Assembly: GCF_056746865.1 (NCBI RefSeq)
Contig: NZ_CM163382.1
DNA length: 64,000 nt
Reading direction: 5' to 3' (one strand)
How positions within the stretch are numbered: the stretch's first letter is position 1; each line of letters starts with the position of its first letter. The notes beneath the pieces are model-generated. The model saw only the letters and a program-made list of their open reading frames with translations. It did no database searches and had not been told where the DNA came from. The position numbers and the translations under genes are program-made. Shown here piece after piece: positions 7,634-13,111 of the stretch.

Positions 7634-7894
7634 TACGCATTTGAAACGCCTGCAATGGTGAATCGTAAGAGATTTAAAGCCCCAGGGAGTGGGGCGGGAA
7701 TGGTTTGTTAATGAATGATCCTGAACTTTATAATCTCCCGGCATAATTTCCAGGGGATTATTTGAGAGAAATACACAAAAGTGAGTTTTAACAATATTTA
7801 TCAAGCCATAAATGTGACCGGCTTCGGATAAAAAAGATTAAACATAGAAAAACCAATGATCCTCTTGCTGATGGTTATCAACAGTAATTAAGAT

Positions 7895-8338
7895 GTGATT
7901 TTTTTCCGTAATCGCGAAAATATTCTCATGACCATAAAAGAAAAAATCTCACAAAAATATCCCCATGCTTCCTTTTGTACTTTTGGCGATTCAGCAGCGT
8001 TGGCCGATCACCTCGCAACGTTGATTGCGACAGGTGTTAAAACAGCTTCCTGTGGTTCGCTGGCGGGATGTATTGAAGACAACGCATTTCCGATGATTGG
8101 TGAGTATAAGATTGTAGAAAATAGCCGTGGTGAGCCTGTCTGTGTTATCAGAGTGATTGGCCTGCATTTACTGCGCTTTTCTGATGTCACCGCGGAGCTT
8201 GCCCGTAAGGAAGGTGAAGGTGACCTCAGTCTTGAATATTGGCGTAATGAACACCGTCGTTTTTTCCAGGCAGAAGGATGCTATTCACCCGAAATGGACG
8301 TTATCTTTGAAGAATATGCCCTTATTGACGTTGTGTAG
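7895..8338 (+). CDS. ASCH-domain (PUA-like fold) protein
   Basis: ORF track 147 aa; GxK motif (ATGVKTASCG); real start may be ATG at 7928; no strong Shine-Dalgarno at either. Confidence 0.55.
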   Translation: MIFFRNRENILMTIKEKISQKYPHASFCTFGDSAALADHLATLIATGVKTASCGSLAGCIEDNAFPMIGEYKIVENSRGEPVCVIRVIGLHLLRFSDVTAELARKEGEGDLSLEYWRNEHRRFFQAEGCYSPEMDVIFEEYALIDVV

Positions 8339-8588
8339 ATAACTATTTTTCTACGCGAAATAAGCTCACAAACATAAAATATCGCTAATTTTGTTTATTT
8401 TGCTATTTTTTACGTGATGAATGTCACACTTATTATTGCTGCCCGTTTTGTCCATATTTATAACCAAATTTTTAATAGCTGCCTGAAATAGGGCTGTTTA
8501 TTCTGCATAAAAATATTCGAAAATTCTTATTCTCTCCAGCGCGCTAATTTGGGCGAACACTTCCTGACTACCCTGCAATGAGGCTGAA

Positions 8589-9575
8589 ATGATGAATAAA
8601 CGTTTTGTTATCAATATGGTGTCTTCGCTGTTATTAGGCGCTGCGCTAATTTCTGCGCCGCTCCAGGCAGCGGAAAAAGTCGTGGTGAATATCTCTAAAG
8701 TCGATGGTATGCCGTGGTTTAATCGCATGGGCGAAGGTGTGGTCGAGGCGGGTAAAGCCTTTGGTGTTAATGCGTCACAGGTGGGGCCTTCAAGTACTGA
8801 TGCTCCGCAACAGGTTAAAATCATTGAGGATTTAATCGCCCGTAAGGTTAATGCAATTACAATTGTGCCAAACGATGCCAACGTGCTGGAACCGGTATTC
8901 AAAAAAGCGCGAGATGCCGGAATTGTGGTTCTGACCAACGAATCCCCCGGTCAGCCAAGTGCTAACTGGGATATCGAAATCATTGATAACGAAAAATTTG
9001 CCGCTGAATATGTTGAACATATGGCGAAACGCATGGGTGGCAAGGGCGGCTATGTGATTTACGTGGGTAGTTTGACCGTGCCGCAGCATAACTTATGGGC
9101 TGACTTGCTGGTGAAATACCAGAAAGAGCATTACCCGGATATGCATGAAGTTACCCGCCGCATGCCGGTTGCCGAGAGTGTGGATGACTCACGTCGTACC
9201 ACACTGGACCTGATGAAAACCTATCCTGACTTGAAAGCGGTTGTCTCCTTTGGTTCAAACGGTCCGATTGGCGCGGGACGTGCAGTGAAAGAGAAACGGG
9301 CGAAAAATAAAGTCGCAGTCTATGGCATGATGATCCCTTCACAGGCGGCATCACTGATTAAAAGTGGTGATATCACCGAAGGGATTACTTACGATCCGGC
9401 CTCTGCAGGTTACGCACTCGCGGCCGTCGCCAGCACGTTGCTGAAGGGTGAAGAGATCAAACCTGGATTAGAAATGCAGAATCTGGGGAAGGCCGACGTA
9501 GATATAGATAAGCGAATTATCCGTTTCCATAAGGTACTGCTGGTCAACAAAGACAATATCGACTCACTTTATTAA
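8589..9575 (+). CDS. periplasmic sugar-binding protein of ABC transporter (PBP type 1, LsrB/RhaS-like)
   Basis: ORF track 328 aa; cleavable signal peptide (MMNKRFVINMVSSLLLGAALISAPLQA); GAGG Shine-Dalgarno upstream. Confidence 0.75.
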   Translation: MMNKRFVINMVSSLLLGAALISAPLQAAEKVVVNISKVDGMPWFNRMGEGVVEAGKAFGVNASQVGPSSTDAPQQVKIIEDLIARKVNAITIVPNDANVLEPVFKKARDAGIVVLTNESPGQPSANWDIEIIDNEKFAAEYVEHMAKRMGGKGGYVIYVGSLTVPQHNLWADLLVKYQKEHYPDMHEVTRRMPVAESVDDSRRTTLDLMKTYPDLKAVVSFGSNGPIGAGRAVKEKRAKNKVAVYGMMIPSQAASLIKSGDITEGITYDPASAGYALAAVASTLLKGEEIKPGLEMQNLGKADVDIDKRIIRFHKVLLVNKDNIDSLY

Positions 9576-11108: not shown

Positions 11109-12072
11109 ACTGAAAAAACGTCATGAATTCTGGCTGGCATTACTGATTGTGGGGCTGTTTGTCGGCCTTGCCTGGCGCAGCGACGAGTTTCTGACATTCG
11201 GTAATTTGTACGATCTCGCCAATAACTATGCCATGTTGACTATTCTCGCCTGTGGTTTGTTTGTGGTGTTGATTTCCGGTGGAATTGATATTTCGTTTCC
11301 AGCAATGACCATCATTGCGCAATACGGCATGGTGCTGTTGCTGCAAAAAATTGGTGGCAACTTCGCTGTCGCGTTTGCCCTGGCGGGCGGCATCGGCATT
11401 TTACTTGGCTTAATTAACGCCTTACTGGTTAATCGCCTACGGGTGCCTTCTATTATCATCACTATCTCGACGCTGAATATTTTCTATGGCCTGCTGTTAT
11501 GGTTGAGTAAAGGTGTGTGGCTGTACGACTTTCCGCCGTGGTTTGAGCAGGGGGTTATGTTGTTCAAGTACACCGATGCTGATGGCTATGACTATGGCCT
11601 TGGTCTACCGCTGATCGCCATGATTACGGTGGTGCTGCTAACAGCGTTTATCATGAATTTCACCAGTGTAGGGCGCAAAATTTATGCCCTTGGCGGGAAC
11701 CGTGAATCCGCCAGTCGCATCGGCTTTAGCGTGCTGAAACTGCAACTTTTCGTCTACGGCTATATGGGATTGATGTCTGGTGCTGCGGGTGTAGTGCAGT
11801 CGTGGACGGTGATGACTGTCGCCCCCGATTCTCTTCTGGGTTATGAGCTGACAGTACTGGCTGCGGTGGTGCTTGGCGGCACTAGTTTGCTCGGCGGGCG
11901 CGGCACGTTAACCGGTACTTTGCTCGGCGTGGTGTTGTTGGCAGTGATGCAAAACGGGCTAAATTTATTGGGAGTCTCGTCTTACTGGCAAACATTGATC
12001 ACAGGCATCATCATCGTTGCCAGCATTAGCGCCACGGCGTGGAGTCAGCATCAGAACCGGAGTCTGCTATGA
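11101..12072 (+). CDS. ABC transporter permease (RbsC-like)
   Basis: ORF track 323 aa, multi-pass hydrophobic; start overlaps ATPase stop (ATGGCTGA), GGAGG upstream. Confidence 0.8.
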   Translation: MAELKKRHEFWLALLIVGLFVGLAWRSDEFLTFGNLYDLANNYAMLTILACGLFVVLISGGIDISFPAMTIIAQYGMVLLLQKIGGNFAVAFALAGGIGILLGLINALLVNRLRVPSIIITISTLNIFYGLLLWLSKGVWLYDFPPWFEQGVMLFKYTDADGYDYGLGLPLIAMITVVLLTAFIMNFTSVGRKIYALGGNRESASRIGFSVLKLQLFVYGYMGLMSGAAGVVQSWTVMTVAPDSLLGYELTVLAAVVLGGTSLLGGRGTLTGTLLGVVLLAVMQNGLNLLGVSSYWQTLITGIIIVASISATAWSQHQNRSLL

Positions 12073-13025
12073 AAAAATCGTGGCGTAATAACGTTGAGTT
12101 TTACTTGATCGGCCTGTTGGTGCTAACTGTTGCCGCCTTCAGCATTACTATGCCGGAGATTTTCTGGTCGATAAGTAATTTCCAGTCCGTCGCTTCGCAA
12201 ATGCCCGTGCTGGGCATTCTGGCGTTGGCTATGGCGGTGACCATGCTTTGCGGTGGCATTAACTTGTCAATTATAGCCACTGCTAACGCCTGTTCACTGG
12301 TGATGGCGTGGGTGGCGACTCAGTATCCACCGGGTATTGCTACGGTTGTCGCTACGCTGCTGGCGGGCGCTGGCGCGGCGGTGATAATCGGTTTATGTAA
12401 CGGCGTATTGATTGCTGGTATTCGAGTGTCGCCAATTCTTGCAACACTCGGGATGATGACGTTGCTCAAAGGGGTAAATATTCTGGTGACAGGCGGTAGC
12501 GCCATTGCCAATTATCCCTCATGGGTGCTGTGGTTGAATCATGCACAGTGGTTCGGTATTCCGCTACCGATGTGGTTGTTTGCCGCAGTGGCGCTGGGGC
12601 TGTGGATATTGCTGGAGAAAACGCCGCTCGGTAAATCCATTTATCTGATTGGTTCTAACGAACGAGCAACACTTTACTCCGGCATTAACACTCGTCGGGT
12701 GCTGATTTGGGTTTATGTCATTTCCGCCTTGCTTTGTGCGGTAGCGGCATTTTTGATGATGTCGAAACTCAACTCGGCTAAGGCCTCTTATGGCGAATCG
12801 TACTTGCTGGTGTCAATCCTCGCGGCAGTACTCGGCGGGGTTAATCCGGACGGCGGCAGCGGGCGGATAATTGGTATGGTGCTGGCGCTGTTTCTTCTGC
12901 AAATTATTGAAAGCGGCTTCAATATTCTCGGTATAAGCCCCTACCTGACGATGGCCTTATGGGGAACGTTGCTGCTCTGTTTCATTCAGGCTCGCGGCAT
13001 GTTGGGGCTGGATCGGGTGGTTTAA
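12069..13025 (+). CDS. ABC transporter permease (second subunit)
   Basis: ORF track frame 12039..13025; start set to ATG 12069 (MKKSWRNN...) overlapping upstream stop as ATGA. Confidence 0.75.
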   Translation: MKKSWRNNVEFYLIGLLVLTVAAFSITMPEIFWSISNFQSVASQMPVLGILALAMAVTMLCGGINLSIIATANACSLVMAWVATQYPPGIATVVATLLAGAGAAVIIGLCNGVLIAGIRVSPILATLGMMTLLKGVNILVTGGSAIANYPSWVLWLNHAQWFGIPLPMWLFAAVALGLWILLEKTPLGKSIYLIGSNERATLYSGINTRRVLIWVYVISALLCAVAAFLMMSKLNSAKASYGESYLLVSILAAVLGGVNPDGGSGRIIGMVLALFLLQIIESGFNILGISPYLTMALWGTLLLCFIQARGMLGLDRVV

Positions 13026-13111
13026 ATATTGGCTATATTCAATGGACGCGTTTTGCCGCGATGACATATCAGGCATCGCCAAATACACATAGCTAATCAG
13101 GAGTAAACACA

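Follow-up and report, generated by a model that had tools for sequence, protein, structure and literature searches.

The Aau D-ribulose importer locus between yahJ and yahK of Escherichia coli: probable direct control by AraC and a deletion scar in K-12

The accessory L-arabinose uptake system (Aau) of Escherichia coli is encoded by Z0415-Z0419 on O-island 17 (PMC11127945, Cottam et al., Nat Commun 2024), and a copy of its genes lies between yahJ and yahK, at positions 7634-13111 of a 64,000-nt stretch of contig NZ_CM163382.1 (assembly GCF_056746865.1) that is referred to below as the window. The binding protein AauA of the enterohaemorrhagic E. coli (EHEC) strain ZAP193 was crystallised with alpha-D-ribulose (PDB entry 9I1M), which is contacted by residues K37, W43, E118, H167, E196 and S223 (PMC12307932, Cottam et al., Nat Commun 2025). 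AauA binds D-ribulose with a Kd of 1.98 uM and L-arabinose with a Kd of 598 uM, and the two sugars shift its melting temperature by 16 C and 2 C, respectively (PMC12307932). Once imported, D-ribulose is phosphorylated by AraB, and the growth benefit that it provides also needs L-arabinose and is lost in a delta-aau mutant (PMC12307932). L-arabinose is the sole inducer of the aau promoter, which shows no activity once araC is deleted, and delta-aau strains were outcompeted 10-100-fold in streptomycin-treated mice (PMC11127945). The Rbl system of Citrobacter rodentium (ROD_24811-61) belongs to the same transporter family, with about 60% identity according to the Aau papers; Rbl is induced by D-ribulose and possesses its own D-ribulokinase and isomerase, whereas Aau lacks both enzymes and depends on AraC and AraB. 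AraFGH differs from Aau in using another binding protein, the L-arabinose-specific AraF. LsrACDB and RhaSTPQ share with Aau the CUT2 architecture and the fold cluster of the binding protein, and they provide its best matches among curated hidden Markov models (HMMs).

The transporter genes of the window are those of Aau, and the locus is therefore already known, as its binding protein is orthologous to the crystallised and biochemically characterised AauA. A PDB sequence search aligned the protein with 9I1M_A over 328/328 residues (99% identity, 711 bits), and only two substitutions were found (D201 and I306, where 9I1M has V and M). All six D-ribulose contacts are retained, and the same six residues are invariant in 76/76 binding proteins of the family. 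The structural-genomics entry 3D02 (about 93% identity) is an orthologue as well. The first-pass annotation of the window had considered the substrate unknown; this does not hold, as the 99% identity to AauA of 9I1M amounts to orthology with a characterised transporter of D-ribulose and, weakly, L-arabinose (PDB 9I1M, PMC12307932, PMC11127945). The copy analysed here and the Aau locus of EHEC O157:H7 share the position between yahJ and yahK, the gene order, the binding protein and the ribulose contacts; they differ in that the present copy stems from a non-O157 strain and has an intact ATPase gene, unlike EDL933/TUV93-0, in which this gene has a premature stop at codon 259 (PMC11127945). We hold with high confidence the joint reading that the locus encodes the Aau D-ribulose importer, that AraC would act on it directly, that the upstream ASCH-domain gene is a separate gene, and that the locus was lost in two steps from the K-12-type lineage. 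The genes and flanks are as follows:

6251-7633: yahJ, left flank gene
7928-8338, + strand: ASCH-domain gene (open reading frame opens at 7895; 136 residues; Pfam PF04266)
8589-9575, + strand: aauA, binding protein (open reading frame scan; 99% identity to PDB 9I1M)
9585-9602, + strand: GC-rich stem-loop (7 pairs, 6 of them G-C, then TTCTTATT)
9624-11108, + strand: two-domain ATP-binding cassette (ABC) ATPase gene, Z0416-7 equivalent (494 residues, intact)
11101-12072, + strand: permease 1, Z0418 equivalent (323 residues; AraH/RbsC-like by NCBIfam)
12069-13025, + strand: permease 2, Z0419 equivalent (318 residues; RbsC/LsrD-like by NCBIfam)
13112-14161: yahK, right flank gene, directly after permease 2

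The presence of five genes between yahJ and yahK, which had been proposed from the sequence, is borne out by the open reading frame scan and by the RefSeq annotation of strain 118UI (100% identical here), which shows the same five-frame layout; given their strong homologues, the five frames are real genes and not chance open reading frames. The content and order of a four-gene monosaccharide-type importer, also part of that proposal, were upheld by the scan and by the NCBIfam matches. A type I binding protein, a polypeptide of about 500 residues with two nucleotide-binding domains and two RbsC-type permeases make up the CUT2 architecture, with NCBIfam matches to RhaS/LsrB/RbsB (binding protein), AraG/XylG/RbsA (ATPase) and AraH/RbsC (permeases) and precomputed Pfam assignments on an E. 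coli copy to PF13407, PF00005 and PF02653. Overlapping genes had been noted before and were recovered: the two permease genes share a true ATGA overlap (12069-12072), and the genes for the ATPase and permease 1 overlap by 8 nt (ATGGCTGA, 11101-11108). A 48-nt gap separates aauA from the ATPase gene and holds the stem-loop at 9585-9602, which is probably an intra-operon attenuator or stabiliser, judging by its sequence. The order of binding protein, ATPase and two permeases, placed between yahJ and yahK with neither kinase nor regulator, is that of Aau. No regulator or catabolic enzyme gene was present among the open reading frames of 7634-13111, in line with the first-pass annotation; the regulator AraC and the kinase AraB are encoded elsewhere, in the core genome. 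The suggested comparison of base composition gave a GC content of 0.40-0.44 for the ASCH part, about 0.50 for the transporter and 0.55-0.59 for the yah flanks, so that the composition of the locus differs from that of its surroundings.

The ATPase open reading frame is uninterrupted, and its 494 residues correspond to the length of its orthologues. Its NCBIfam matches (AraG, YtfR, XylG and RbsA) all remain under the equivalog cut-offs. Both Walker A motifs (residues 37 and 286), both signature motifs (141 and 397) and the Walker B motifs DEPT (161) and DSPT (417) are present. As a separate observation, the Walker B motif of the second nucleotide-binding domain (LLILDSPT, residue 417) is without the catalytic glutamate, while the first is a canonical DEPT; among 78 orthologues the second motif reads DSPT in 65, DAPT in 9 and DEPT in 4. 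This pattern suggests a degenerate second ATP site throughout the family.

For the function of the locus, the following course of events is proposed. AauA would capture alpha-D-ribulose with an affinity in the micromolar range and would also bind L-arabinose, though about 300 times more weakly, and the fused two-domain ATPase with the two permeases would carry the sugar into the cell. The core-genome AraC would turn on the operon, which is devoid of its own regulator and kinase, in the presence of L-arabinose, and the L-ribulokinase AraB would phosphorylate the imported D-ribulose and thereby feed it into the pentose phosphate pathway. The uptake, induction and kinase steps are experimental for a 99%-identical protein or locus; the direct action of AraC is inferred here.

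Related operons were collected in one scan of species-representative genomes (one genome per species), which returned 80 loci, and the four-gene operon is kept as a unit across them. AauA identities reach 90-92% in Klebsiella, Franconibacter and Mangrovibacter, 83-86% in Aeromonas and Symbiopectobacterium, 74-79% in Atlantibacter, Leclercia, Providencia, Yersinia and others, 65-77% in Pasteurellaceae and a few Vibrio, and 55-58% in Morganella, Ferrimonas, Photobacterium and most Vibrio. Linkage of the operon to the ASCH gene, yahJ and yahK is found in E. coli only. Neighbouring genes were clustered and then annotated with NCBIfam. In 27 loci the operon adjoins a gene for a true AraC equivalog, which scored 419 bits (cut-off 208), and in 8-9 loci the genes for AraB and AraA lie next to it. 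All 19 loci of the 55-58% clade encode an FGGY pentulose kinase directly downstream (TIGR01315, 720 bits), and a different FGGY kinase is found downstream in 13 Pasteurellaceae loci. The 55-58% clade (Morganella, Vibrio, Photobacterium), with its FGGY pentulose kinase gene behind the operon, matches the organisation of Rbl and has identical pocket residues (KWEHES). The published split into Aau and Rbl is thus reproduced on a wider taxonomic scale. The operon of the window has no FGGY D-ribulokinase or isomerase gene, and yahK follows directly after permease 2. Two entries of the scan deserve separate mention. A 4.7-kb contig in a 'Bacteroidales bacterium' metagenome-assembled genome (L004, SFEK01000152.1) carries aauABCD with 99% identity to E. 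coli and is almost certainly an E. coli contig that was mis-binned. A fourth state of the locus is seen in E. coli SCPM-O-B-8794 (L032, 7468-9001), where a pdeL-like c-di-GMP phosphodiesterase of 362 residues is encoded directly upstream of aauA and the genes from yahB through the ASCH gene are not present; the ATPase of this genome is only 96% identical to that of the window.

The Aau papers did not map an AraC operator at aau (PMC11127945, PMC12307932), and a concrete prediction for AraC and CRP can now be put forward. In alignment A1, which takes in the sequences upstream of the operon in E. coli, Klebsiella, Franconibacter, Mangrovibacter, Aeromonas and Symbiopectobacterium, four conserved elements remain in register: a CRP-like site, an I1-like site, a second site that starts with TAGC or TAAC, and a -10 element. 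Their counterparts in the window, all predicted, are:

8413-8428, + strand: CRP-like site CGTGATGAATGTCACA (GTGA-N6-TCACA), 1 mismatch to TGTGA-N6-TCACA
8440-8456, + strand: AraC I1-like half-site TGCCCGTTTTGTCCATA, ending TCCATA
8461-8477, + strand: AraC I2-like half-site TAACCAAATTTTTAATA, 21 bp after I1, weak in E. coli
8499-8504, + strand: putative -10 hexamer TATTCT (TAYTCT in alignment A1)

The equivalent of 8499-8504 is included in the fragment of about 300 bp that conferred AraC-dependent reporter activity (PMC11127945). The I2-like site TAACCAAATTTTTAATA resembles the sequence at the I2 position of Pasteurellaceae loci (TAACAAAAATTTACCTA). The sequence of the K-12 araC-araB region was used to compare this geometry with that of araBAD. 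I1 and I2 start 59 and 38 nt ahead of the -10 element at aau and 58 and 37 nt ahead of it at araBAD; the CRP sites of both promoters end in GTCACACTT at the same position just upstream of I1, and the araBAD -10 element reads TACTGT as opposed to TATTCT. Like the araBAD and araFGH promoters, aau has a CRP site followed by I1 and I2 direct repeats, which overlap the -35 region and lie 21 bp apart, a nearly identical spacing to the -10 element and, in published genetics, a dependence on AraC and L-arabinose; the aau half-sites in E. coli are more degenerate than those of araBAD and araFGH. A forward I1-type site (at most 2 mismatches, at most 300 nt upstream of the binding-protein gene) was detected in 55/78 non-E. 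coli loci, where about 13% would be expected; as these 78 loci are phylogenetically related, the enrichment overstates their independence and its P-value is inflated. The I1 consensus is perfect in most Pasteurellaceae loci. AraC-type half-sites are present in most Aau-type loci, and no upstream I1-type site was detected in any of the 19 kinase-linked loci. AraC therefore probably acts directly through the I1-I2 pair and the upstream CRP site at 8413-8477, in an araBAD-like layout. The CRP/I1/I2 promoter design appears ancestral to the Aau clade, as orthologous operons in other Enterobacterales and in Pasteurellaceae share it, many of them beside araC.

Several results speak against this account of regulation and function. 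The search for the AraC half-site consensus in the window alone gave 35 matches where 40.8 were expected, which is not above chance, and the 3 CRP-like sites in the 64 kb (1.6 expected) are not significant by themselves; the credibility of the AraC site is derived from cross-species footprinting and from the comparison with araBAD rather than from the window search. The AraC and CRP sites are predictions, with 2 mismatches in the I1 and 3 in the I2 of E. coli, and the transcription start of aau is likewise predicted, at about 8510-8512. For the copy in this strain, Aau function is predicted from sequence.

The distribution of the locus was surveyed by megablast in a set of 5,426 complete E. 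coli genomes. The entire 5.5 kb is present in 2,211 of these (41%), and its identity is 100% in the urinary isolate 118UI and 98% in O157:H7 strains. In K-12 MG1655, yahJ and yahK are neighbours with a spacer of 376 bp, as the first-pass annotation had stated, and the five genes are missing. Nevertheless, the spacers of K-12 and ATCC 8739 align to three parts of the window. The first (7534-7695) comprises the end of yahJ and 61 nt, the second (8291-8360) the final 48 nt of the ASCH gene with 22 further nt, and the third (12954-13211) the last 24 or so codons of permease 2, the following spacer and the start of yahK. In addition, the central part of the K-12 scar (63 nt) aligns only weakly to 8375-8432, and in the spacer of ATCC 8739 RefSeq marks the C-terminal fragment of a gene. 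The same scar architecture was detected in 2,759/5,426 genomes (51%), including ST131 and CFT073, and approximately 370-400 genomes show neither the full locus nor the scar. An intermediate is the unclassified Escherichia sp. E2593, which carries yahJ, an intact ASCH gene (90% protein identity) and yahK but no transporter. Its spacer between the ASCH gene and yahK contains the same permease 2 remnant as K-12, and its alignment to the K-12 scar runs through the same junction. The missing segments are:

7696-8290: about 0.6 kb absent from K-12-type genomes (retained intact by Escherichia sp. E2593), comprising the ASCH promoter region and three-quarters of the gene from its 5' end
8433-12950: about 4.5 kb absent from both K-12-type genomes and Escherichia sp. 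E2593, comprising the AraC sites, the promoter and almost the whole of aauABCD (junctions accurate to within about 15 nt; left junction approximate)

An empty insertion site cannot hold the 3' ends of two island genes, and the K-12 state is thus a deletion derivative. By this sequence comparison, the polymorphism is best explained by loss from K-12 of an old locus in two deletions. The proposed order leads from the full locus through the aau deletion of about 4.5 kb to the deletion of about 0.6 kb, which would have removed most of the ASCH gene in the K-12-type allele. A hairpin (GCCCCA-GGGAG-TGGGGC) is located at 7679-7695, 46 nt past the yahJ stop codon, and the K-12 homology ends exactly at its 3' edge, which means that the ASCH-side deletion has its left junction at the hairpin. 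The wider proposition is that aau is an old Escherichia locus that most E. coli, including K-12 and ST131, lost by one shared two-step deletion, and that its AraC/CRP control was not a recent 'hijack' but is ancestral to the Aau clade; we judge this to be slightly favoured on balance. Two facts tell against it. Over the flanks E2593 is 94-96% identical to E. coli, which is near the divergence between K-12 and the window, and it is therefore not a deep outgroup. Furthermore, AauA was detected in no other named Escherichia species in the scan of one genome per species. An older horizontal entry into the E. coli lineage, before the deletions, is possible and would fit the difference in composition.

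The most durable alternative is that the 5.4 kb represent a recently acquired island that was inserted between yahJ and yahK in pathogenic lineages. The Aau papers describe the locus as 'horizontally acquired' and 'EHEC-specific' (PMC11127945, PMC12307932), and its listing as an O-island (PMC11127945), its absence from K-12 and from the other Escherichia species representatives, its composition unlike that of the flanks, and the unrelated genomic contexts of its nearest relatives (92%, Klebsiella and Franconibacter) would all be consistent with such an event. Strains that lack the locus, however, carry gene remnants instead of an empty site; K-12, ATCC 8739, ST131, CFT073 and Escherichia sp. 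E2593 all keep coding remnants there. The 41% of complete E. coli genomes with the locus moreover cover many pathotypes and hosts, including the urinary-type strain of the window, and no integrase or transposase, tRNA, att site, Rfam element (7000-17600) or boundary repeat was found at the site. The data agree poorly with a recent insertion into this strain, which is considered unlikely. The first-pass annotation had described a strain-variable island; the variability and the absence from K-12 stand, while the framing as an insertion is doubtful in view of the gene remnants in the K-12 spacer.

With respect to the substrate, L-arabinose or another pentose or deoxy-hexose such as ribose or rhamnose could be the true ligand, with D-ribulose binding being incidental. 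L-arabinose is the sole inducer and overexpression of aau partly rescues a delta-araE mutant on L-arabinose (PMC11127945); araC and araBA adjoin orthologous operons in other species, and RhaS is the top NCBIfam match of the binding protein. The biochemistry points the other way, as the affinity is about 300-fold higher for D-ribulose, the melting shift amounts to 16 C as compared to 2 C, and the growth gain requires D-ribulose in addition to L-arabinose and is gone in delta-aau (PMC12307932). In the distant clade with identical pocket residues, the operon lies directly upstream of an FGGY pentulose kinase gene in 19 loci, and the RhaS score of 136 bits is far from the cut-off of 342. A substrate other than D-ribulose is thus improbable.

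The ASCH gene product matches Pfam PF04266 with an E-value of 8.4e-22 over model positions 5-102/103 and falls into the YhfF/COG4405 subgroup. Its homologues in PDB (1t62 and 3s9x) are structural-genomics entries without assigned function, homologues of 50-65% identity are common in Enterobacterales and named only 'ASCH domain' or 'YhfF', and no match was obtained in NCBIfam, PADLOC or PHROGs; nor did a family model link the product to the YqfB-type N4-acylcytosine amidohydrolases, which are ASCH proteins as well. The Aau papers leave this upstream gene untreated, and it stands outside the published system. The ASCH gene would be a separate, uncharacterised gene by sequence comparison, given that it is absent from other Aau/Rbl loci, is kept without aau in E2593, has its own promoter-like site upstream (7705-7734), and is separated from aau by a regulated promoter. 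The opposing view would join the ASCH gene and the transporter in one functional unit, for instance for the processing of an imported (nucleo)sugar, or would assign the ASCH gene to the yahEFGIJ cluster. Near-perfect co-occurrence in E. coli (2,208 genomes with the ASCH gene and 2,211 with aau), the shared strand and the position of the gene directly after yahJ in E2593 favour these options. Still, an ASCH gene was found in 0/78 non-E. coli Aau or Rbl loci, a 250-bp spacer with aau's own regulated promoter intervenes, and E2593 has the ASCH gene without aau. A homologue with 65% identity in Yersinia canariae is in an unrelated context, the GC content of about 0.41 contrasts with 0.50 for the transporter, and the published Aau phenotypes come from Z0415-9 alone (PMC11127945). 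Two further carriers of the ASCH gene are uninformative, one being an error-ridden assembly with the full locus (L089) and the other ending at a contig break (L090). No evidence of cooperation between ASCH and the transporter was found, and either form of this view is very improbable. A scheme in which the transporter and ASCH would feed the yahEFGIJ cluster was dropped, as the yah linkage is confined to E. coli and the substrate is known.

Among the matches listed, all E. coli records give the binding protein the PGAP/RefSeq name 'autoinducer 2 ABC transporter substrate-binding protein'. The earlier impression that the protein resembles LsrB and RhaS was accurate in so far as these are its best NCBIfam matches; the HMM classification that had been proposed as a check yielded 136 bits for RhaS (TIGR02637, cut-off 342) and 111 bits for LsrB (cut-off 384), and the protein therefore resembles both but is an equivalog of neither. 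Membership tests for ALTERNATIVES comprised the equivalog scores, the identity to K-12 LsrB, which is 28%, and the residues in contact with autoinducer 2 (AI-2). These contacts are reportedly K35, D116, D166, Q167, P220 and A222 of LsrB, as Pereira et al. are said to have described in 2009, and the positions were confirmed in the K-12 LsrB sequence. AauA has K, E, Q, H, F and S at the six positions, so that only K35 is kept (1/6). An LsrB-type AI-2 importer, as implied by the product name, by the second-best NCBIfam match and by LsrB structures among the PDB matches (E-values of about 1e-21 to 1e-24), is hardly credible and already effectively refuted by the low LsrB score and identity, the single conserved contact, the absence of lsrK, lsrR, lsrF and lsrG from the neighbouring genes and the D-ribulose in the crystal structure (PMC12307932). 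LsrACDB and RhaSTPQ likewise differ from Aau in their scores far below the equivalog cut-offs, and no lsr or rha genes are neighbours of aau. The RefSeq name is a misnomer.

Several observations concern the surroundings of the locus. The products of yahE, yahF and yahG (window 3777-7633; locus L085) match the Pfam families AllH, AllF and AllG of the oxamate carbamoyltransferase type, and they are followed by the carbamate kinase gene yahI and the amidohydrolase gene yahJ; judging by these domains, yahEFGIJ resembles the allantoin/oxalurate branch and may be an uncharacterised paralogue of it. In the yah cluster the divergence between K-12 and the window is 3.4-4.4%, which may be high for a within-species comparison. 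Relative to K-12 and 118UI, an insertion of 1.33 kb (14344-15673) is located between yahK and yahL and contains two overlapping open reading frames of the IS3-family type (14389-14799 and 14757-15662) that are IS2-like by size; an overlap of about 6 nt in the K-12 alignment at the junction suggests a target-site duplication. Because of this insertion the window must stem from a strain other than 118UI, despite the 100% identity between yahJ and yahK. The yahG-yahI spacer of K-12 (the 'yahH' region) consists of repeated units, and most of it is missing from the window (5196-5253). Copies of these units with about 70-90% similarity were found at 26299-26993, where they recur about every 94 bp in a tandem-like array, and at 29707-29809; they are probably extragenic repeat elements. 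ARAGORN called a tRNA-Ser(GGA) at 16898-16978 in the yahL-yahM spacer, where no Rfam tRNA reached the gathering threshold and none is annotated in K-12; the call is probably a false positive or a tRNA-like remnant.

The benefit of Aau to E. coli in the gut, namely access to D-ribulose when arabinose is present and better colonisation, has been published already, and the additions made here (the deletion scar, the operator prediction, the clade-wide linkage to AraC and the misnomer) are incremental. The wrong 'autoinducer 2' product name is attached to thousands of genomes. With K-12 and half of the sequenced E. coli being deletion derivatives, the reading of this locus as 'acquired by pathogens' changes. 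If the proposed ancestry of the promoter is true, the transporters of the Aau clade would be long-standing, overlooked members of the AraC regulon in Enterobacterales and Pasteurellaceae.

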